Assembly: GCA_045837725.1 (NCBI GenBank)
Contig: JBEWZL010000269.1
Location: 1 to 64,000, forward strand
Direction of reading: 5' to 3'
From: Vermamoeba vermiformis
Taxonomy: Eukaryota
Length of the DNA stretch: 64,000 nucleotides
Part shown: in pieces, positions 21,548 through 55,712 of the stretch
How the letters are laid out: each line of letters starts with the position of its first letter
Position numbering within the stretch: position 1 is the stretch's first letter
The notes under the pieces: model-generated
Databases searched by the model: none
What the model was told of the DNA's origin: nothing
What the model saw: only the letters and a program-made list of their open reading frames with translations
Made by a program: the position numbers and the translations under genes

Positions 21548-24401
21548 ATGACGAAAATTATACTAGCCGTTTTATTATTATCTTTGTGCTTAATCCAACT
21601 CTGTCGCGCAGCTGCTTTTAGCGCGAACAGCCTGCTGGTTTCGTCCTCATCGGGTTCAACCTATTACATCCAAGAGTACGACATAGCGGGGACCAAAATA
21701 CAACAAATAAGTCTGCCGGCAGGGTAAGCAACTATTTTTTAATTAAGTTCGTTTGTTATGATCATTACGTACTGTGAAATCGATTCTCTATTATTAAATT
21801 CAAATTTTATTATTTTTACTAACAAATTACATTAAATTTTTCAAAACGGTTCGACCACCGGATTTTATCGAGGAACGTTCCGCCATCAAAGTCGCGGAAC
21901 ACGAACCGCAACACCTTCAAATTTCAAATATGTATTTCGCACCAAAAAAGTTAGTCTTTGAAAGCGAATTGATTCTGTTTCCTGCGAGGAGCGGATGTGA
22001 TCCGAAAAAAAATGGCTATTTATTAACCCTAATTTTTTAGTATTTCCTGCGCTGGATGCAAGCTCAATTTGGACGCTACTGGTGGCATAGCTACACTCGC
22101 GGCGTACGAAGGCACCAGTCCTTTTACCTCCCGTGGCTACACTTTCAACATCCAGGGCCAACGCGTCGACACTACAACGTTAACCTCGCAAGCTAGCACC
22201 TCTTCAGCTTTTGTTATCGATGGTCAAGATAGTTGGTTCAACGTGGGCACGGATATCGTGTACACTTCTCGCGGCACTTCATCTGCCTCGCCAACGACGA
22301 TCTTTACGTCGGGCTCTTCGATAACTAACTTGCAATTGGTTGATGGCACTAAGCTTTATGCTCTCATTGGTACCGACGTCCAACTGATGAGTCCAGTGGT
22401 CAAATCAGGCAGCGGCTCTTTCTCTACTGTTGTGAGCGGAGCCAGTGCTTTCTACGTCTACCAAAGCACCACGCTGTACACGTACTCTTCGAACAACCAA
22501 TACATCAACAAGTACACGTTAAATGCTCAGGGAACAAGCGCGACATTTGCCTACAGAGTCTACGTGTACAACGATATCCCGACCGTTTACAGCTTGTTCG
22601 TCACTCAAGTTTCAGGAACGACTTACGTGTTGGCCACATGCAACGATGGAACATATTCGTATCTGTATCGGTACACGGACACTGGATCAGCTATGAACGG
22701 AGTTAAGGGGTTGGATACTGGAATCGGCTTTACCATTTATGCTGTTGGAGGCGCGCCTAAACCAACATGCTCAGACGGATTTAAGAACCAAGATGAAACT
22801 GACACTGATTGTGGAGGCTCTATTTGCAGTGGCTGTGCTATTGGCAAAGTTTGCACCGGTAATGCAGATTGCAGTAGCAACAAATGTACCAGTGGGCTTT
22901 GTGGTAAGTTACAAGCGTCATATATCTGCAAGTACTTGTTGGCTGAGACTATTCTTTTGTAGCTGCTTCGTGTACAGATGGCATCAAGAACCAAGATGAG
23001 ACTGACATTGATTGTGGAGGCTCTACTTGCTCCAAATGTGCCAATGCTAAGTCTTGCTCATCATCAAATGATTGTACCAGTGGCTATTGCAATAGTTCAA
23101 ACAAGTGTGGTAAGTAGTGCAAAGCATTACCCATTGTTGCTAATGACAAAATGTTCAGCAACACCAACATGCTTTGACAGTGCCAAGAACCAAGATGAGA
23201 CTGATGTTGATTGTGGTGGAGTCACTTGCTCAGCTAAATGTGCTATTGGCAAATCTTGCTCTGTTAATGGAGATTGTAGCAGCAACAAATGTACTAGTGG
23301 ACTTTGTGGTACGTTTTCAATGCTAACTTGCAGACTGTACTAAGTTCTGTTTGACAGCTGCTTCATGCACAGATGGCATCAAGAATCAAGATGAAACTGA
23401 TATTGATTGTGGAGGCTCTACTTGCTCCAAATGTGCCAATACTAAGTCCTGTTCAACATCAAATGATTGCTCAAGTGGTTATTGCAACAGTGCAAACAAG
23501 TGTGGTATGTTAATTAAGAAGATACATTATGATAGCTAACAAGCTTGTTCAGCAACTCCAACTTGCATAGATGGCGTCAAAAATCAAGATGAGACTGACG
23601 TTGACTGTGGTGGAGCCACTTGTGATGGTTGTGCAATTGGTGCTAGTTGCTCTGTCAATGGAGATTGCCTTGGCTCCAATTGTGTCAGCCAAGTTTGTGG
23701 TATGAATAATTGCTACATACATTTGCCAATATGCACTAAAATTGCATTTTTGCAGCTGCTTCATGCACTGATGGCATCAAGAATCAAGATGAGACTGATG
23801 TTGACTGTGGTGGTTCAGCACCTTGCTCCAGGTGTGCTAATAACAAGGCCTGTGTGAAGGCTGGTGACTGTTCAAGCAATTATTGCAACCCCAATAGTAT
23901 CTGCTGTAAGATCATTCATAATTCTTATAACAAGCATTGAACTAACTTCTTTGAAGCCACTCCTTCATGTGCTGATGGATGGAGGAACCAAGATGAAACA
24001 GACATTGATTGTGGAGGATCTACATGTTCCAAATGCTCAGCTGGCCAAGCTTGCACTCAAAACTCTGATTGTGCTTCCAACCTCTGTGCTACAGACACTT
24101 GTAGTAAGTACACATGATGTCAAATTTAAATTTATTAATCATTGTTGTTACAGTTGATGTTCCAGTCGCTCCTGTTTCACCTCCAATTGCATCTCCTGGT
24201 TCAGAGCCAGTCGCCGGTCCTGTTGAATCTCCCGTTGCAGATCAAACGCCCGATCAATCTCCTCAAACACCAATTGCATCTCCGAGTAGCCAAAATCAGC
24301 CTGCTGCTTCAACCCCAGTTAGAAAATTAGTGTCAACCGCCTCTGTCGCGGCATCAGTAGGAGGACTTTTTGTCAGCGTTGTTACTTTGATTTTGTGTTG
24401 A
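21548..24401 (+). CDS. Secreted/GPI-type surface protein with 7 Cys-rich (C.DG.KNQDETD.DCGG) repeats
   Basis: Signal peptide; Ser/Thr/Tyr-rich beta domain; 7 repeats, mostly one per exon with phase-1 introns; Pro/Ser stalk; hydrophobic tail. Confidence 0.85.
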
Positions 24402-26128: not shown

Positions 26129-28408
26129 ATGGCGCGATTAGCTTTAGTGCTTTTTACTTGTTTGTGCTTGCTGCACTTCAGCACATCCGCACCATTCACG
26201 AAGAATAGCTTTGTTGTGTCCTCGAGGGACTCCCTAGCGCAATATTACCTACAAGAGTACAGTATAAACGGCACAAAATTGCAACAAATCTATTTGCCAA
26301 CCCCGGGGTAAGCTATAAATTAACGGCCAAATCCAATTTTCAATCTTGACAACAAAAAAAATTCGACCGATTATGAAGCGCAACGAATCGGAGGAATATT
26401 AAATATTTTATAGACGCTGATTCTAATTATTTTAACTGTCTAACCGACAATTTCGTTCGATCTTGCATCCAAATCTAATCATTTTGCAACTAACCTCTAT
26501 CCCATCTAGAGCTTGCACAACTTGCCGGTTTGGTTTGGATGCAACGGGTCTCTTACTTGCCATTAACATGTATAGTTCTGATGCTACCCAATATCACACC
26601 CTCGTGCACTTGTACAACTCGCAAGGGGATCTCGTCGAGACTACGGACATTCCAACAGGCTCCGAGTTCGTTGGTGATGCCACAGTAGGCAATCAAGAAA
26701 TTTGGTTGACTTATCGATCGGGCATTATGTACACAAAGCGAGGTACAGCGGCAGTGGTCAACTCTAACATTGCTTCGCCCACAGTTTATAATGCCGCTCA
26801 ACTTCAATTGATTGGCAGCAAATTATACGCCCAAATTGGTCAGCTTTATGCCATGGATCCTGTGGCTACGACTGGCACCGGCACATTTGTTTCTTTGAAT
26901 TCTGTTTCACCACTCTCTGCCACTTGCTATTATATTTATGGAAATGCAATCTACAGATATGATTCAGGCTATTTGTTCAAGCACACTTTTGATGCCCAAG
27001 GAGCTGTTTCTGGCATGTCAGATTACTATCTTCAAATACAAACAAACAATGCTGCACCAACTAGTTTGTATGCAATGGCAAGTGAAGGAGTCACTTATGT
27101 GTTAATGGTCCTGATCAATGGCTTTGCAAAAGAATATACTTTAGTGCGCTTCACAGATACTGGAACTCAATTAACCAATCAAGTCACTTTGGATTCAAGC
27201 ACCACTTATTTTATGCAAGGTGTTGGAAGCTCTCCTAAAATTACTTGCTCAGATGGCTTTAAAAACCAAGATGAGTCTGACATTGACTGTGGTGGTGCTA
27301 CTTGTGGCAGTTGCAGCTTGGGCAAAGCTTGTGCAGTTAACAGTGACTGCTCAACAGACTACTGCAATTCAACCAAGATTTGTGGTATGTAGTTAGAAGT
27401 ATCATGCCAGTGATTGCTAACTTGTTTTGTCATAGACACTCCTACATGCAGTGATGTCGTCAAGAACCAAAATGAGACTGATCTTGACTGTGGTGGACCT
27501 AATTGCAGTCCATGTGCAAATGGAAAATCATGTGACCTTCATACAGATTGCTCCAGTGGTTATTGTAGTTCATCTAATACCTGTGGTAAGTTACATCAAG
27601 TTACTGTATCTTATTGCTAATTGTTCTGGCACAGCTGATCCAACTTGTAATGACAGTGCCAAGAACCAAGATGAAACTGACGTTGACTGTGGAGGGCCAA
27701 CTTGCCTTCCTTGTGAAATTGGAAAAGCTTGCCTATTGCCTAGAGATTGTTTGGGTGGCTATTGCAATTCAACTCAGATCTGTGGTAAGTCAAAAAGCTG
27801 CAAATATGTTACAGAGGCTGATCAGTATTTCAGATGCCCCTACTTGTGATGATGGTGTAAAGGACCAAGATGAAACTGATGTTGACTGTGGTGGTGTGAC
27901 ATGCCCTGGCTGCGCCATTGACCAGGTTTGTGTACTTGATGGAGACTGTATCAGCAAGAGATGTGATGCTGGTTACTGTGGTAAGTCCAACATTGTAATA
28001 CCTGCAAACACATACTAAGTTGACATATAAAGTGGTATCATGCTTTGATGGCTTCATGAACCAAGATGAGACTGACATTGACTGTGGAGGTTTTGCATGT
28101 GTAGAATGTGAAATTGGCAAGGCATGCTCTCTGGACTCTGATTGTAGCAGCAATGCCTGTTCTAACAATACTTGTGGTAAGCAGAATTCTACTCAAACAC
28201 CCAATTTGGCTCACACAAAACACGTTTAGTCAATCCTCCATCAGCAGGCCCAGAGTCAAGTCCTGTAGCAGATCAGCCCTCCAACACTCCGAGCTCAAAT
28301 ACACCAGTTGGCTCAAGAACCCCAAGAGGAACGTTGTTGTCTTCTGCCGCTTTCTTAGTGATGTCTGCGACAGTAGTTTGTTGTGGCTTTGTTGTGTTAC
28401 TTATGTAG
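26129..28408 (+). CDS. Paralogous surface protein with 5 Cys-rich NQDETD.DCGG repeats
   Basis: Same architecture and first-intron position as 21548-24401 (YYLQEYSINGTKLQQI vs [16 protein letters not shown]); hydrophobic tail. Confidence 0.85.
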
Positions 28409-46868: not shown

Positions 46869-48605
46869 GAGTAATAAAGGTCGTTTTGTCTCTTACAAAC
46901 CGGCGAGTACAAATTAAAAAAATTTTATTATTACTAAAACGTCTAATTCTAACCTCACTACTACTATTATTATTACTAATATTATGTCTACTTTAAGTTG
47001 AAGTTGTTCGATCTTTCTTGAGCTGGCAAGAAAATCGATTCTCGCGCAATAACCATGCATTCCGCCTATTACAAAGGCTTATCTAGCGCGATAAGAAGTT
47101 TTCGAGCGAAATCAATTTTGCAGTAAGGAAAATGAATTCGTTTGAAGATCTTGACCCAGATCTCGAGCGGAAACACGTCCGTGAATGCATCTTCGCGCAA
47201 TCTTATCATCTGAATAAATGCGTTGATGTGTCTAATGTCGTCGATGCTGCGCCAGTAATTTCTATAATTTCGAAGAAGGGGCTTTTGGACGATATCAATA
47301 AATTCTTGAACACCATGTAAATCAGCCGCAGTAATCGACTCATTGGCTTGAAGTATGCTCGCTAGTGCTTGTTGCATCATTTCTTTCTCATCATCATTTG
47401 CTCCATCCAGAGATTTAACTTTGATCGTTCGTATTGACTCGTTGATTTTGAGGGCTGATTCAATATGACGAAAACATCGCTTATTGACGGTCAAGCTGGT
47501 TAATGTCTGATTGGCTGCCAGAGCTTCGCTGAATTTTTTCAGGTTGTTTTCGGTTTCTTCTTCCGGCTCTTTACTCCATTCAGGGGCGTAAAGATGCAAA
47601 GATGACAATGTGAAATTCGCACGAAGAACATCTGCAAACATGCTGTAATAGCGTCCAGAGTACTTGTCGCGTTGGAAATCAAGGTCTAAATGTCGTAATG
47701 TCTTATTCGTCATCAATCCTTTTGTTATTTCGGACACAAAATATTCGCCAGCTGGTTGTACTTTATTTCTGAAAGTAAAACTCTCCAGCGTCGAATTGAC
47801 TTGCAATATGTTTCCTATTGACCAAAAACTTTGCATCGTTTTGCGAATATCACTGTCGTATGAGCCATCCTCCGAAAAAGTTATTGATAATTTGGTGATG
47901 CTCTTGCTGTTTCTGAGAATTTCACAAATGTCAACGTCTTGCAATGCAATATCCGTCATTATCAATGTCTTCAACTTGGTTTGCAAAATTGGCTTCAATT
48001 TATCAAAATTTATCAATGTTCCATCACCAGCAATATCGAGTTTTCGTACATTTTCGTTTTCTGCCAATTTTTCTAGGTCACTCTTGCCACCAACAAGCAA
48101 GCAAATGTCCGAAAAGTTTGGTACAGACAAAAGCTCAAGATAGATGTTGTCCTCGCTGCTGAATACCTTCATGAAAATTGATGTCAAATTTGGACCTGTC
48201 AAAGTGTCAACTAGCTCTGTCATCGGTGGTGAAGAATCTGTGCTCCCTAGAATGAGGGATACACTAGTGATCCTATTCGTCGCCAATATTTTTTCATACG
48301 AAGCTCGGTATAAGTCCCACCAAGAGGTTTCAATGGTAAGTCGGCTAATTGACTTGTTTTGAACGTACAGATCTGTAGCTTGGATGTACGTGTCGGGGAT
48401 TATATCTATATCCTCTAAAGTTGGGCTGTTTTTCAATGCATTGCGTAGTCCCCAACTTTTCAATGTTCTAATGCTTTGATAGTTAAGGACGATGAATTTT
48501 TTTCTGGTAGGAAAAAATAACGGTCACACACGTGGATTAAAAAACTTAGGTTAGTTTTGCATTAATTTTGTACACTAAATAAACAAAAGTTTTGACAAAA
48601 CATTT

Positions 48606-51101
48606 TCATTTATTTGGCAGAAGTTTTGCCGCCAAGGAGTACACGAGTTTCTTTACGTAATGCGTGGAGTACTTGTTCTGAAAGCACTCCACAACCAAAT
48701 GGAATACTAAATCCTTCTGTGTAGCTGTTCGCAGATTAGTAGACTTTAGATACTGCTCCAGTTGCTTTACGTCTTCTGGATTGATCTGTTTTGATTTGTA
48801 GCGTTGCTCGGTAAATTCTTCAACCTTCAATTCAAAATGAGATGATGTTGCACGGTCGGCCAAATCAACAATAACAACTGAATTTTTGTTCCGTGCAAAA
48901 TTCAGTTCTTGCATCTGTCGCAGGATCCGTTGCGACTTTGGCAACTTGGCAGTTCGAACACTGTCAAAATTAATTTTACAATATTTTAAAATGACCGTTT
49001 CACTTACCCAATATTATAAATTAACTGACAATGCTGAATAATTTGAAAATTTAACTCGTACGACAAATTGCCACTTAGCTCTGGGGCCATTGAGGATAAA
49101 AAATGATGCCACGCTTCTAGTGCAGACGTTCCTTGTGGTATGGAATCCTGGTGATGTATTAATTTTTCGTGTTGCTGGGAAACGCATCCAACTCACTTGA
49201 ATGAGAGTAATATCGTGCAAGCTTTGAAGTGTGTTCGCCTTGCACAAATTATCAATTGCCATTAATACTTGTTCATTAACAATGCCTTCGCGAATGTCTA
49301 TCTTGGTGTCACGCCTTTGACAATAATTATTTTGTGTCAAATAAATGAATACGCAACTTACTTTTGCTGATTGATAATTAGAAGAACTTCATTAGCATTA
49401 TATTTGGTGCGAATTGATGGCTCAGTGAATGTAGTTGCCCAATCTCGCAATGCTTTTTCTAGATCGGATGCTGAAGTGTACGTATGTGTCTTGATCTGCC
49501 CTAGCACTTTAGATAGTTCTTGAACGCTTTCCTTATAGTCTTTTGTAATTAGAGTCTACTGAATTGCTTTGACAAAGAATGTGTACCTGGATGTGAACGA
49601 GCCATCAGTTTGACTACGCGCATCTTTGCATGGTAGATATCTGTTAATAGTTTCGGTTCCCTGGCAGTGGGAAAACAGTTTTTGAACGCTTGTAGGACAG
49701 AGGATGAGTCTGTTATTGGATTAGAAGAAAATGCGACGGATTGACCAAACAGCTTACCAACAGCTATGTTATCAGTGCATACAAATTTGGTTATTGGCGA
49801 CTCCTGAAGCTTCCAAATGCTTGAATATACTTCTGCTGCTTTCTGGCGATCATCGGATGGCGTAATTTTGACTTGCAAGACCTCTCCATTTTCATTGCTG
49901 ACCGAAAATAAACTTGCTTTCATTTTCATCTGTCTATATTAGTATCTACGAATGAGATGTGTCAATTGCTCACCCTTTTTTTCTCAGTTTCGGAAAACGC
50001 AGACATGTTTTTGACAACTTTGTAAGTGTGATCTCCTCGTAAAACAACTCCGGTGGTCGAACACAATTGTTGTATTTGGGAGTCCCATTGTGGTTTCACT
50101 ACTTCCTTCCAGAAGGCGGTGTACATGTTTTTAATTGACCACGTGGAGATAGTTGATGCACAAGTCTCTGAACTCCAATTAAGCATAATCAGCTTCTTAA
50201 TTCTCGTAAAATTAAATCCAACTAGAGGCATTGAGTCAAATATGTAGCTGGCAAGCCTAGTGGTGAACAACAGGCGTGGACTGACAAACAAGCCAGTGGA
50301 AGGAGAATGGTTTGCGGACACCATTTTTACGACGTGCGGAGAAATATCGTTGAACCATTCCTCATGTGATGAACAGAAGTATTTTTGTACCACCAAATTG
50401 AAAACTCCGTTCTTGTCATATAGTGTTCGCCGTTTATGTCCCCTTTTGTGAACCTTGCACTGTTTACCGTTAGATCTAACAACAGGTTTGCGCGACATAC
50501 CTTGATATTACTCGCTGCCGTTGAGCATTGATGTATTTTAGCAGCTGGTACCCAACAGAACCTGACATCATCAACACCGGGTTCGTCATCTAAGTAATTG
50601 TCAATCACACACTTGCAGTTATTAGTACAAACCAGAGTTGTCATCGTCATAGTCAACTAACTGGTCATCGTGCTCGCTTTCAGAATCTGTGTCTGTGCTG
50701 GAGTTCGTATCACTCTCATCCTCGGACAAAATGTCATGCAACACAATTTGAATGTCGTTCAGATCAAAGACATCTACGTAATGATTAGCACTACTTCATT
50801 ATAAAGTTCGCATACCAATTGAATCGGACACATCCGTCGTGGTTGCAGGTTGTGGTTCACGCTTGATTTTGTTCGTTTGTTTGTTCGCCCAACCATGAGG
50901 CCGTTTGGACACTAAATGCGTTAGTATTACAACGCGCTCTAAACACTTACACTTTAAGTGCTGCTCCCTAACGTGACGCTTCATGTTTGAATGCACGCCA
51001 CAGCTGTAATTGCAGTGCTTGCAGTAGTAGCGGCACACGCCTCCAATATCTCGCACAGTATATCCTGCAGCTATTTTTGCTGTCTCGTCATTGATTTCCA
51101 T
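48606..51101 (-). CDS. DDE transposase, ~11 exons, N-terminal C2H2 zinc finger
   Basis: In-frame after splicing: CKHC..HVREQH; LRGDHTYKVVK (D1); SVSNENGEV; FVCTDN (D2); TDIYH (DxxH); QGTSALEAWHH (E). Confidence 0.85.
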
Positions 51102-51207
51102 GTGCGTGTGTTGAATAAAATAAATCGAACAAATTTCGGTTGTGCGTTTCCGTTTCCTGACACAAACACAAATCCACAACAAAAATATCATTGGTTGTTA
51201 TTTGATT

Positions 51208-52828
51208 ATGGCGGATAAAAATAAGAAACGCAAGGTGATTGAAGAAGACGTTGAGAAAGTCAAGACAAGTAAGCTGATCGGATTTTTCAGGTAATATCAC
51301 AATTAATTAATTTTATTTATTAGAGAAGCGTCGCAAAGCCGGTAAGTAAATATATAACCTTGTTTCTGTATTTACGTGAATTTAGGAGCAACAGCGAATA
51401 AGAAGAAAAAAACTGATGGTAAGATCCGTTTATTTTGTACGCAATATAATAGTCCTATTCATAGACGCAATAAATGAGGGAATTAACACGCAGAATAAAG
51501 GTAAAATTCAACTTCACAAGTTTTGGCTGAACTTTTGCAAAAAGATTTGCCGAATCTCTTTCGTTTTCCTAAACTTTTGCTAATCTTTCGCTTAACTTTG
51601 GAGATGACAAGGAAAGCAAGCAAAACGATCAAGCGAGTGATGCAATAGTCAATAACAATGAGGTAAAGGCAGAAGCGAAAAGTGATCCAGCAATTTCTTT
51701 GGTCTCGATCTCGGCTGGGGATTATATTGCTGTTATCGGGGAGGAAAAAAGTACGTATTAATAAACAATTAATTATCATAATTAATTAAATACTGCAGAG
51801 CCTTGGTACGCAATTGTGCGCGAAGTCGTGGGCAATAATGAGCAGATTCGGGTATCATTTCTGGAGGTAATTATTAATTAATTAAATAACGCACGTAAAG
51901 CTAATAAATTTCTATTAGCCAATTGCCAATCGCCGAATTTTATTCTCCGAAAGTGAAGCAATAGATGAGATACCCTATAATTCGCTCATCTGTAAAATCT
52001 CTGTAACAGCGCAAGGAGGACAGGTTGTTATTCAAGACGCCGAGCAAAAAAAGGCTACTCATACGTGGAATCGCATTGGTATGTATTAAAACTAAATTCA
52101 AATTTGTGATTAATTAATTAGATATGTACATCCGCAATCCGGCTCTCGAAAAACGAGAGAGAATTGGCTCGTGGCTATTTCCCGTTCAATACTTGAGAGA
52201 AAAGCTGACTGACACTGGTACGTGCATTATTAAATTCATTGTAAATTTACTAATCAATCGTAGATATGCAGAAAGTCGTATTCAAAGCAATGGGCAAAGA
52301 CCTCATGTTCAACTGCTTTATGATCAATTTGTCGAAGTACGGATTTTTCAACAAGCAGCACTGGCAAAGTAAGAGCAAGCAAGGAACCGGATCTACTCAA
52401 TTCCCGTTCTTACTGTTAATCCGCCTGTTTGCAATATCACTCGAAAATGCGACTTGGACCAAAGGCACTGAACCAATCAAATGGCAAGCAACGTTCACCA
52501 TTCCCAACGTTGGATCTCGTCAAGTAGCGATCTGTGGTACGTGTAACATAATTGTTAAATAACTCCTGACGTGCGATAGGTTCAATAAGTGGCGACACGT
52601 GGGTGAGTTCATTGAACACACTGTGCGAACTTGGATTTTTGGCCCCGATCTCATATTACTCAGGCGATGTAGAGTACGCAGAGATTATTGTTTATTAACG
52701 ATCATAAAAATAACTAATATTACAGGCTCACAATTACTCTACCACCGTTCCAGCCTCTGACGAACACTCCACAAGTTGTGGATCTAACGACCGCTATGTT
52801 GGAGGAATTCGACGTTACTACGAACTAA
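51208..52828 (+). CDS. Transposon accessory protein (~360 aa, ~11 exons) with basic NLS-like N-terminus and BAH-like domain
   Basis: Continuous reading frame through GT..AG introns from ATG 51208 to TAA 52828; AGDYIAV..PWYAIV..IRVSFLE..ILFSESEAIDEIPYNSLICKISV. Confidence 0.7.
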
Positions 52829-53685
52829 AATAGTTTGGATGTAAAAGTCATAAATAAATTTACAAAAGTTTTGCATTAGTTTGTTGTTCCACGTGTGTGA
52901 CCGTTATTTTTTCCTACCTTTTTTCTTGCGCGGATGAGATCGATTATGTCCTCTGAAGTCGTCGGAAAATAAACCTTAGCAACCAAATATTAGTCTAATG
53001 CATATTAATATCAGTTTTAACTTACCGGTTCGTAAAGGAGTTCAACTTCTCGAATTGACGGATCAATTGACGACTTTAATCGTTCGAACTGACTAGCTGA
53101 TAAATCGTTCCTTGTTACGCGTAATCTATCAATGTGTTTGATCTGACTTATCATTGAACAAAATTCATCGAACACTTGGTCTTGAATCGTGTAATTATTG
53201 AAAATTACCGTTTTAATCTTCTGAAGTATTTCATCGCCTTTAAATAATATCTTTTTGATCCATATGATATTATCCGTTGAGATTGTCATTGCTTGGAAGT
53301 TGATCTGACTTATCTTGCATGTTTTATTGTGAATCCAACTTTTTAAATCTTTCCAATCAGACTCGTTAAATTCGTTTTCATTTACGTATAAATTTTCGAA
53401 TCGTTTCGTATGCTTTTGTAATTGTTGCTTGTCTTTGTGCTGCATGGGAATCTCAAATAACGCATCCGCTGACTCGCGATCAAATTCATACTTTGGTTCG
53501 GTGAGGAACGAAGGACTTGTTATCCGACGCCATTCTGTGTCCAATGCATTCATTGTATGTTATTGTAAGGGGAGTTATTAATCATCAATGATTAAAAAAT
53601 CTAGTCTTGAATGAGGTGTCAATTCGTCACAAAAGGCTAAATTTTATTTAATCGGGTAATTTTGGGGCCGTGAATTGATTCAAAT

Positions 53686-55712
53686 TTATGATACAGTTTT
53701 AAGACCCTCCATAAATTTTTCCGCGAAGTTGATTCTGCACCCGGGTAACTGGATCCGCTTGAAAATCATAACCCAGATCTCGAGCGGAAGAACTGAAGTG
53801 AATGCTTCTGGTCGTAGGCGCATCATAGTAATCAAAGAGTATATTCTATCAATATTTTGATGGTACGCCAGATTATTTCGTTGCAAAACTTTTTGGATGT
53901 GGACCGGGATCGGAACTTTCTGTAGTCCTAATGAAGTTAAAGACTGATTCGTTTGCAACACAGTATCTAATTTTTCGAAGAATTCATTCGGAACAGCTCC
54001 GAGCGCGGTCGTTAAATTAAGTTTTTGCAATGAGTTGTTAGTCTTCAAAACCGACAAAACTTCAGTCCAACAGCCGATTCCTTCGGCAGTCAAGCTTGCT
54101 AGTGATTTGTTAGTAGCAATTGCATGGCTGAATTTCACTAGTTGGTTTGGCAATGGCTCGAGTCCGCCTAAGCGAAGAGATGTCAAAGTGTCATTTTCGA
54201 TCAGGGCTTCTGCAAACATGTCAAAACAATCTTCGATAATATGTACGTCCAAATGCTTCAGTACTTTGTTATTCTTCAGTCCTGCTGTGAATTTTTCGAA
54301 AAAAGTTTTGACGTCGTTTAGTGGCACTTTGAGTGTCAAACTTTTGAGCGTTGAATTGACTTCCAAAATATCCGCAATGTTATCGTACCGATCTGCACGA
54401 ACAATCAGTCCCGGCTATATAAGAGATAAGGCACTTACGAGAAGGTCCGTTATAATAGGTCGTTAGTCCGTTTCCGTCTTCTATGACGGACAGCTCGGTA
54501 ATAGACGTGCTATTTTTCAAAACTTGACAGATGTCAAACTTTTTCACAGTGACGTGAGATAGTGCTAGCTTCGTAAGTTGTCCTAACAACATCGTTGATA
54601 TCTTTTCGAATCCTTTCGTTGATCCGCCGAATATATGGAGCTTTGTGACGTGTTTATTTGGCGCTATCAGGTCAGGAAAGTTGCTAGATCCGCGAAACCC
54701 GCAAGCGACTTGCAGATCTGTAATGTTTGGGATGTTGAGTATATCTTTGAACGTATCTCCTTGCATATCACATTCAATTTTCATCGAAGTCAGGCTCGGA
54801 CGTGTTAAAGACTTGCTGAGCGAGCTGATCGAGTATTGTGTCACGCCAAAGGTTGCTTGTATTTCAATATGTGTTATTCGATCATTTTCTATCAGATTTT
54901 TAAATACCGATCGATGATTGTCCCATCCATCGGTACCAATAGCTATTCGTGTAACAGATTTGTTTTGTGCGATCGCATCTGCTGCGAGCGGCAAACTCCA
55001 AGGGTTTAACGCAAATGATTGTATTGAGACATGTTCCAGCGCAGGACTATTTTTTAACGCATTGAAAAGGCACCAGCCAATGTCAAAGTCGCGAATATAA
55101 TTGATCTCTTTCATTCCGATAACAAATCTTCGCTTCTTTGTTACTTGTTCGTAAATAGAATTGTCGGACATTGCAATATATATCTAATAATTACGTTAAT
55201 TGATCCTAATTCCGCTATAATATTATTGGAAGCAGACTTACAGGTTCGTGGATGAGCTCGACTTCATTTATTGACGGATCTATCGTCGCCTGGAGTTGCT
55301 GTACTTGATGTTGGGATAATTCGTTGATTGTTATTCTTAGTCTATTAATGTTTCTGATTTTGCCGATGAGGGAACAAAAATCTTTGAATGCCTTGTCATT
55401 TTGGATCGTGTAATTGTTAAAAATGATTGTTTTGATGTTCTTGCTTTTAATCAATATCTCTGTGATATATGAAATATTCTCGGAGGTAATTGTGAGCGCT
55501 CTGAACGTTACGTGATTTATTTTGTTTTTTTTGTCTTGCATCCATGTCGTTAAATATTCCCAATCTTCCTTTTTGAACTTATCTTCACTGACATATAATT
55601 CTTCTAGCGTCTTTATACGGTCATACAATTTTTCTGGGTTGGTTTGATTAGGAATGTCGTAAACCGCTTCTTTCCAAATCGGCACGCCTGACTTGTTGGT
55701 TTTACCGTTCAT
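53686..55712 (-). CDS. Intact RI-like LRR protein with C-terminal F-box-like motif (tandem paralogue), 3 exons
   Basis: NALKNSP, LEVNSTLKSLTL, LKNNKVLKHLDV, LQTNQSLTSL; C-terminal LPLEIWVMIFKRI; introns ~55184-55241 and ~54393-54438. Confidence 0.85.

Follow-up and report, generated by a model that had tools for sequence, protein, structure and literature searches.

Some transposable elements that move by cut-and-paste transposition carry a second gene beside the one for their transposase, and such a gene raises the question of whether it serves the element and, if so, in what way. Accessory genes of this sort are few and poorly understood, the examples being those for the Harbinger Myb-like protein, MURB, VANC, TET/JBP and SET proteins. 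The question is posed here by a gene of the amoeba Vermamoeba vermiformis, called ORF2 below, that lies within a stretch of 64,000 nucleotides. This whole stretch, referred to as the window, is eukaryotic DNA whose introns are short. A preliminary description, made from the letters of the sequence, had presented ORF2 as an intact multi-exon gene borne by a MULE-like transposon and coding for a nuclear protein with a BAH-like domain, a candidate chromatin reader, targeting or anti-silencing factor that would act as the partner of a transposase. The analysis reported here takes up the structure of the element, the expression of the gene, the make-up and relatives of its protein, and the roles that the protein might have. 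The features discussed are collected in Table 1.

Table 1. Positions, within the window, of the transposon, its two genes and the interrupted host gene
Feature	Position	Strand	Remarks
Transposon	48506-52918		4413 bp, two divergent genes
Left TSD copy, TTTTTTCT	48498..48505	.	8 bp, read directly; identical to 52919-52926
Left terminal inverted repeat	48506..48546	+	41 nt
Right terminal inverted repeat	52878..52918	-	41 nt
Right TSD copy	52919..52926	.	8 bp
Spacer between divergent start codons	51102..51207	.	106 nt
Transposase gene, predicted	48606..51101	-	Eight exons, ~720 aa
Transposase exons 1-4	51101-50816, 50773-50633, 50589-50501, 50459-49974	-	
Transposase exons 5-8	49929-49560, 49518-49362, 49314-49030, 48960-48606	-	
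ORF2 (gene under study)	51208..52828	+	11 exons, 362 aa
ORF2 exons 1-6	51208-51268, 51324-51341, 51386-51418, 51465-51500, 51604-51750, 51799-51866	+	
ORF2 exons 7-11	51919-52078, 52122-52217, 52264-52536, 52580-52673, 52726-52828	+	
ORF2 exons 1-4, basic NLS-like N-terminal region	51208..51500	+	Residues 1-49
ORF2 region called BAH-like in the preliminary description	51714..52077	+	Residues 87-174, exons 5-7
ORF2 exons 8-11, C-terminal domain	52122..52825	+	Residues 175-362, conserved, no Pfam or PDB match
Host F-box/LRR exon, interrupted, downstream part	47069..48505	-	From frame continuity and paralogue
Host gene, upstream part	52927..53559	-	From frame continuity and paralogue
Host gene exon 1	53026-53559	-	
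Host gene intron	52975-53025	-	51 nt

Structure of the element

ORF2 and a transposase gene are enclosed together by terminal inverted repeats (TIRs) and by a target site duplication (TSD), as is expected of a two-gene cut-and-paste transposon. The TIRs, located by a repeat search, are 93% complementary over their 41 nt and free of mismatches in their outer 30 nt; two such matches appeared in none of 100 shuffles of the window. The 8-bp TSD, TTTTTTCT, is perfect at both ends of the element. When the element and one TSD copy were deleted in silico, the flanks joined as one open minus-strand frame, which continues an F-box/LRR-type ORF (47069-48523) and resembles a neighbouring paralogue at 54380-55183. 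This restoration of the frame implies that the element was inserted into a host coding exon, roughly 48 nt beyond a host intron of 51 nt, so that the first 48 nt of the exon stay on the upstream side of the element. The host gene model derives from frame continuity and from the paralogue, not from RNA.

The near-perfect ends, the perfect duplication and the intact frames argue for a recent insertion, and the element, with both genes apparently intact and a host coding exon interrupted, looks recently active. We read it as a young, autonomous-looking cut-and-paste DNA transposon with two divergently transcribed genes, and from the coordinates we infer a shared promoter in the spacer between their start codons. 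One full element was seen; the remaining 59.6 kb of the window contain no second copy, and an Rfam search of the whole window gave 0 matches.

The transposase gene

The minus-strand gene was modelled by exon chaining, without RNA validation, as eight exons separated by introns of 41-69 nt; the chain scores 1871-1961, compared with 566-872 for 10 shuffles and 521 for the opposite strand. An alternative start, an in-frame ATG at about 51191, lies some 90 nt upstream and would overlap the 5' UTR of ORF2 on the other strand. Exon 1 gave a weak match to a C2H2 finger (E 0.046), which is below the Pfam cut-off. In the predicted protein some 63 residues separate two motifs that contain Asp, and a D-x2-H motif comes roughly 40 residues after them; an Asp/Asp/D-x2-H pattern with this kind of spacing is said to have been described by Yuan and Wessler in 2011 as common to the hAT, MULE, P and Kolobok group. 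When exon 5 was modelled with AlphaFold2 from its single sequence (pLDDT 60), the secondary structure ran strand-strand-helix-strand-helix-helix and the second Asp closed the third strand; at low confidence, this arrangement is compatible with an RNase H-like core. The transposase is apparently intact and DDE-like.

Assignment to a superfamily is another matter. Pfam searches of each exon at E <= 10 gave no significant family for any transposase exon, and among these exons no match to the KDZ, CxC or DUF6729 families. Nor did exons 4 and 5 match MULE (PF10551) or Transposase_mut (PF00872) at this threshold, the catalytic region being split by an intron. Word-indexed protein searches with exons 4 and 5 returned nothing, and the same was true of a scan of viral contigs with exon 5. 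A PDB sequence search with exon 5 gave two matches only, both with E > 1 and both taken as chance. Language-model (Atlas) neighbours, which serve as leads only, comprised DUF6729 clusters (0.93-0.95) for exon 4, together with KDZ-associated CxC4/5/6 clusters (0.79-0.84) that fall below the level of more than a lead. For exon 5 they comprised unnamed eukaryotic clusters (0.93 and 0.92) and, lower and weak, bacterial Mutator/ISL3/MULE clusters (0.85-0.88). A literature search on DUF6729 found nothing.

Target duplications of MULEs measure 8-10 bp, and an 8-bp duplication is also typical of hAT and P elements; the duplication found here fits MULE, hAT, P and Zisupton alike and therefore does not discriminate among them. 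The MULE label of the preliminary description is thus neither confirmed nor excluded by these comparisons, the exon with the second catalytic Asp giving no MULE or Transposase_mut match. The transposase may extend the catalogue of DDE lineages.

Splicing and expression of ORF2

The frame of ORF2 runs from an ATG at 51208 to a stop ending at 52828 and is open throughout once the exons are joined. Its ten introns, all of the GT..AG type, measure 55, 44, 46, 103, 48, 52, 43, 46, 43 and 52 nt; they were placed by hand and then compared with contigs assembled from sequencing runs. Four public runs (X10, X14, X21 and X23) were mapped to positions 48000-53600, and spliced ORF2 was found in both of those labelled as other organisms, X10 and X14. 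In the 1113-nt contig of X10 all ten introns are gone, with cuts exactly at the predicted sites, and the 18-nt exon 2 shows up as letters in between at the first joint. The shorter contig of X14 (969 nt) has lost introns 4-10, seven in all, again with cuts exactly at the predicted sites. The k-mer depth of the spliced contigs was 22.4 in X10 and 7.17 in X14. Neither contig has a mismatch to the window, and both depart from it solely by 3 nt inserted behind 51655; the allele seen in transcripts thus differs from that of the window by an insertion that keeps the frame. As the two runs are only guessed to be RNA, a processed DNA copy is conceivable in principle; the loss of ten introns is nonetheless explained most simply by the splicing of a transcript. 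ORF2 is a real, spliced and expressed gene, and the intact multi-exon gene of the preliminary description, for which a transcript was to be sought, is borne out by the 362-aa frame and by the contigs.

The contigs span 51163 (X10) or 51464 (X14) to 52804 only and give no coverage of the transposase. The 5' end of the X10 contig places the 5' UTR of ORF2 at least as far out as 51163 (45 nt). Since this contig starts in the 106-nt spacer of the element, the transcripts are argued to come from a copy of the element type rather than from a separate host gene. Seven further runs share 0.12-0.19 of the words of the element, a similarly small fraction, judged by word share alone; no RNA run was listed among the runs that share words of the element in the sequencing-run search. 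Expression of ORF2 may not require that of the transposase, or may come from copies consisting of ORF2 only. The apparent excess of ORF2 over transposase transcripts would suit a regulator as well as a structural cofactor made in abundance.

The other two runs, X21 and X23, are RNA-seq data labelled with the organism of the window itself, with about 13 million records each, of which 46-48% were read. Each gave one partly fitting read on the 5.6 kb and, in the portion read, no reads on the flanking host exons. With these runs nearly empty over the 5.6 kb, expression of ORF2 in the source organism is not shown. Either the neighbourhood is silent or absent in the strain or condition sampled, or the organism label spans different organisms.

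The ORF2 protein

Three NLS-like basic clusters are followed in ORF2 by two conserved domains, a small central one and one of about 190 residues. The lysine- and arginine-rich N-terminus that had been pointed out in the preliminary description is evident in the translation: residues 1-60 include 19 K+R and have a pI of 9.8, and the basic clusters KKRK, KKRRK and KKKK, at residues 6, 21 and 32, are typical of nuclear import signals and make the protein nuclear-looking.

The segment quoted as BAH-like is likewise part of the translation, where it runs across exons 5, 6 and 7. A BAH domain is a distorted beta-barrel of about 120 residues. Residues 87-150 of ORF2 show alternating hydrophobic positions, kept in the diverged copy L001 described below, a pattern to be expected of a series of short strands such as those of small beta-barrels; set against the consensus patterns, their likeness to a PWWP or Tudor barrel is presumably about equal to that to BAH. 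Pfam searches at E <= 10 found no BAH, Tudor, PWWP or chromo domain in any ORF2 exon, in the L001 equivalent of exon 7, or in the relatives P0001 and P0008. Pfam and PDB searches of ORF2 were run exon by exon on contiguous translations, not on the spliced protein, and the putative BAH region, for which PF01426 was the profile tested, is split over three exons of 48, 22 and 53 aa; a genuine but weak match might therefore have escaped detection. The searches turned up no homologue that is contiguous over this region. A match of exon 7 to DUF6383 (E 0.032) was below the Pfam cut-off and was rejected.

The Myb/SANT profile had no match in any ORF2 exon, and no Pfam family stood above its cut-off in any exon in searches at E <= 10. 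PDB sequence searches gave 0 hits for exon 7 at E <= 10 and 0 hits for the ORF2 alignment A1. An AlphaFold2 model of the homologue P0008, built from a 10-row alignment, was unusable for a fold search, its mean pLDDT being 37. The C-terminal region of about 190 residues, which is conserved up to the last exon in both P0008 and L001, ends in an acidic helix-like tail. It had been called an unrecognised domain and, giving neither a Pfam family at E <= 10 nor a PDB match, keeps that description. Similarity of ORF2 to any named protein was not detected and, judged from its sequence, ORF2 belongs to no known family among the databases searched.

Relatives of ORF2 and selection

An exhaustive HMMER search with exon 9 among 1.84 billion representatives gave 7 hits, three of which are true relatives, all of them fragments: P0001 (82% identity), P0007 (65%) and P0002 (52%). 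A cluster mate of the last, P0008 (207 aa, about 52%), spans the equivalents of exons 9, 10 and 11; it reads through intron 9, and intron 10 is absent from it. The homologues at 82%, 65% and about 52% keep the frame through the last exon.

The remaining hits, P0003-P0006, are long beta-propeller-like repeat proteins with 7-12 weak stretches each, and were judged to reflect chance similarity amplified by the repeats. With a profile of their repeat unit, spliced ORF2 reached 10.7 bits and the highest-scoring of 2000 shuffles 7.1, while P0001, P0002, P0007 and P0008 went unscored. Residues 150-362 of ORF2 contain no internal repeat, the observed score being reached by 98 of 100 shuffles. It is because the true relatives are unscored and ORF2 lacks an internal repeat that these four proteins are treated as chance.

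Among longer proteins a word-indexed search with exon 9 found nothing. Scanning the metagenomes with exon 9 alone gave no match, and scans of viral contigs and of contigs of prokaryote genomes with the ORF2 alignment gave none either. The alignment-driven metagenome scan produced two loci, L001 and L002, which are 100% identical over 1634 nt and were counted as one independent copy. The identity of L001 to ORF2 is 36% over residues 66-121, 53% over 120-174, 62% over 250-328 and 70% over 328-357, and its introns lie at places matching those of ORF2. The copy is decayed, with an in-frame stop, a truncated 5' end and the equivalents of residues 175-249 missing. After the ORF2 remnant, at 1657-1701 of L001, stands a terminal repeat that is 80% identical over 45 nt to that of the window. 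A transposase was found on neither the L001 nor the L002 contig.

The L001 copy is diverged by about 35-40% in protein, and over 204 aligned codons its comparison with ORF2 gave pN 0.26 and pS 0.73, with a corrected ratio of about 0.11 at saturated dS. As pN is far below pS, ORF2 must have been under purifying selection over most of the divergence, and the position of the remnant beside a related terminal repeat indicates that ORF2 was tied to the terminal repeat of the family already in the common ancestor. Selection and linkage together argue against a neutral, one-off capture. On this sequence comparison, made with one extra copy, ORF2 is a selected component of the element family.

Possible role of ORF2

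The reading favoured here, with a probability of roughly 0.55, is that of a young two-gene transposon whose ORF2 protein assists transposition as an accessory cofactor in the nucleus. Its parts differ in strength. The anatomy of the element and the status of ORF2 as an accessory gene are held with high confidence, and on this point the preliminary description, which had placed the gene on a transposon and beside a transposase, is upheld. The mechanism of the cofactor is proposed more tentatively, at somewhat short of even odds. ORF2 would enter the nucleus and act there as a cofactor of the transposase, most likely by bringing it to, or holding it at, the ends of the element or on chromatin, in the manner of the Harbinger Myb-like protein; a regulatory, anti-silencing role would be the next most likely. 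The searches gave ORF2 neither a homology nor a fold that bears on function, so this mechanism is argued by analogy.

Whether ORF2 serves the element at all was the concern behind the proposal that it might be a neutrally carried host fragment, a passenger of the Pack-MULE kind. The lack of a recognisable domain and the scarcity of relatives in large protein libraries might suggest as much, but the gene is complete, with 11 exons, its own start and stop and its own expression, and a search of the remaining 59.6 kb of the window turned up no host paralogue of it. The ratio of pN to pS speaks for long purifying selection, and ORF2 already stands beside the terminal repeat in the diverged L001 copy; a passenger is therefore very improbable. 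It is also distinctly unlikely that ORF2 is, or has also become, a host gene, in which case the transcripts would stem from a copy that is domesticated or lacks a transposase, and the one in the element would be incidental. Contigs that span ORF2 without the transposase, the seven further runs with a similarly small word share and the presence of ORF2 sequence without a transposase on L001 would all agree with such a gene. Against it, the X10 contig has 0 mismatches to the window even in the 45 nt of 5' UTR that lie within the internal spacer of the element, a terminal repeat belonging to this family adjoins the ORF2 remnant on L001, and a weakly expressed transposase could escape the contigs.

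The preliminary description had proposed a transposase working with a chromatin reader. The accessory gene beside the transposase has stood up; the reader identity of its product is unsupported by the searches. In this proposal the central domain would be a BAH-like module, or another SH3-barrel or Royal-family module, that reads histones or nucleosomes and either steers integration or shields the element from silencing, as VANC does. We consider this unlikely. The hydrophobic alternation of residues 87-150, kept in L001 at 36-53% identity and resembling a run of short strands when set against the BAH, Tudor and PWWP patterns, is consistent with it, as is the NLS-like N-terminus. There are also precedents: two sources document fusions of Chromo and PHD modules to transposases (bioRxiv 10.1101/2021.11.30.470311) and VANDAL, SET and TET/JBP genes in transposons (PMC12730594). 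On the other side, BAH, Tudor, PWWP and chromo profiles found no match in any exon at E <= 10, a weak test for a domain split in three, PDB sequences gave 0 matches to exon 7 at E <= 10, and several residues that the preliminary description had aligned with the BAH consensus differ in L001. A fuller version, in which ORF2 is a stand-alone reader built of a BAH- or Royal-like barrel and a new C-terminal domain, which tethers the transposase or protects the element from silencing, and in which the transposase represents a DDE lineage unseen by current profiles, is decidedly improbable. If the central domain were a histone reader, chromatin targeting would be supplied in trans by a separate gene, and a transposon group using a reader as cofactor may merit a family or superfamily of its own.

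Apparently recently active, and with a second gene that is selected, expressed and of no known family, the element offers a compact experimental system for the second protein of a transposon, in which nuclear import, binding of the ends, chromatin targeting and anti-silencing can be addressed.

Comparison with known systems

A cut-and-paste transposon with two genes is of a known kind; both proteins of the present one, as far as the profile searches go, escape current families. PIF/Harbinger elements likewise have two separate genes between their TIRs, and their nuclear second protein is the working model for ORF2: the Myb-like protein is needed for transposition, brings the transposase into the nucleus and binds to the TIRs (PMC9392472). 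The Harbinger TSD is 3 bp long (PMC12730594), compared with 8 bp in the present element. ORF2 also differs in having no Myb/SANT match, and similarity of the transposase to that of PIF/Harbinger was not detected.

MuDR (mudrA/mudrB) and VANDAL (VANA/VANB/VANC) resemble the present element as cut-and-paste transposons with lineage-restricted accessory genes, and MULEs share with it a duplication within their usual size range and the Mutator/MULE neighbours of exon 5 (0.85-0.88). The genes of MuDR converge from promoters in the terminal repeats, whereas those of the present element diverge from a central spacer. Among the products of VANDAL is one that regulates silencing of the element itself (PMC12730594).

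Zisupton makes 8-bp duplications and its fungal members carry accessory TET/JBP genes (PMC12730594). The Zisupton or KDZ (Kyakuja-Dileera-Zisupton) group is thus like the present element in its duplication, and also in the CxC4/5/6 neighbours of exon 4 (0.79-0.84). Unlike that group, the present transposase has no KDZ, CxC or DUF6729 match in Pfam at E <= 10.

Recruitment of chromatin modules by transposons is documented mainly for Chromo and PHD (bioRxiv 10.1101/2021.11.30.470311). In chromodomain integrases and in the Chromo and PHD fusions to transposases the reader is joined to the enzyme itself, whereas ORF2, a candidate reader only, is encoded by a separate gene; a reader acting as cofactor, if that is what ORF2 proves to be, would be a design distinct from the known fusions of reader and transposase.

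Transcripts and motifs of the transposon

Sequence of the ORF2 transcript of the transposon occurs in sequencing runs labelled as organisms other than that of the window (X10-X17 and X20). X10 and X14, which were compared base by base with the window, show no mismatches over up to about 1.1 kb; a 3-nt in-frame insertion in the transcript is common to both (2/2 runs compared). Such identity can be read in two ways: either one organism, such as a host or a cell grown in co-culture, stands behind the different run labels, or different species carry near-identical copies of the element.

The short motif A[CG]TTTTG[CAG] occurs 32 times in the whole window, and eight of these copies are within the element, all on the plus strand. 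They are grouped near both ends and within a 103-nt intron, ORF2 intron 4, the sole long intron of the gene. This distribution is a post hoc pattern, and the copies may be binding sites or else meaningless. The transposase has a possible alternative start, an ATG in the same frame 90 nt upstream of the one in the gene model; its use would make the 5' ends of the transposase and ORF2 genes overlap on opposite strands.

Coordinates of features in the window and in contig L001
Feature	Location	Strand
F-box-like/LRR gene, coding exon split by transposon	window 47069-48523 + 52927-53559	minus
Tandem paralogue of F-box-like/LRR gene	window 53686-55712	minus
Paralogous ORF pair, about 310 aa each	window 22033-22962 and 26436-27392	+
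A[CG]TTTTG[CAG] sites in element	window 48553-48622; 51519-51573; 52867	+
Alternative transposase ATG	window about 51191	minus
Arms of 160-nt inverted repeat	L001 171-330 and 1708-1867	

Neighbouring genes, long repeat proteins and the L001 copy of ORF2

The tandem paralogue is located directly upstream of the split F-box-like/LRR gene and has an identical exon-intron layout; in the two RNA runs that bear the source organism's label, no read fell on either gene. Elsewhere in the window, two paralogous ORFs separated by 4 kb share a C-terminal Cys-rich module, and the first had no matches in Pfam.

Proteins P0003-P0006 (977-1679 aa), retrieved with ORF2 exon 9, are very long chains in which a unit of about 38 residues recurs dozens of times almost unchanged, and they weakly match an HVO_0234-like beta-propeller profile. 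They were rejected as ORF2 relatives because only repeat-amplified similarity to 20-30 residues of exon 9 had retrieved them.

In the metagenome contig L001, an inverted repeat with arms of 160 nt that are 89% complementary encloses the decayed copy of ORF2 together with the one terminal repeat next to it. This inverted repeat is unrelated to the terminal repeats of the window element, and no target duplication was evident. The L001 fragment appears to be nested within a different, foldback-type element.
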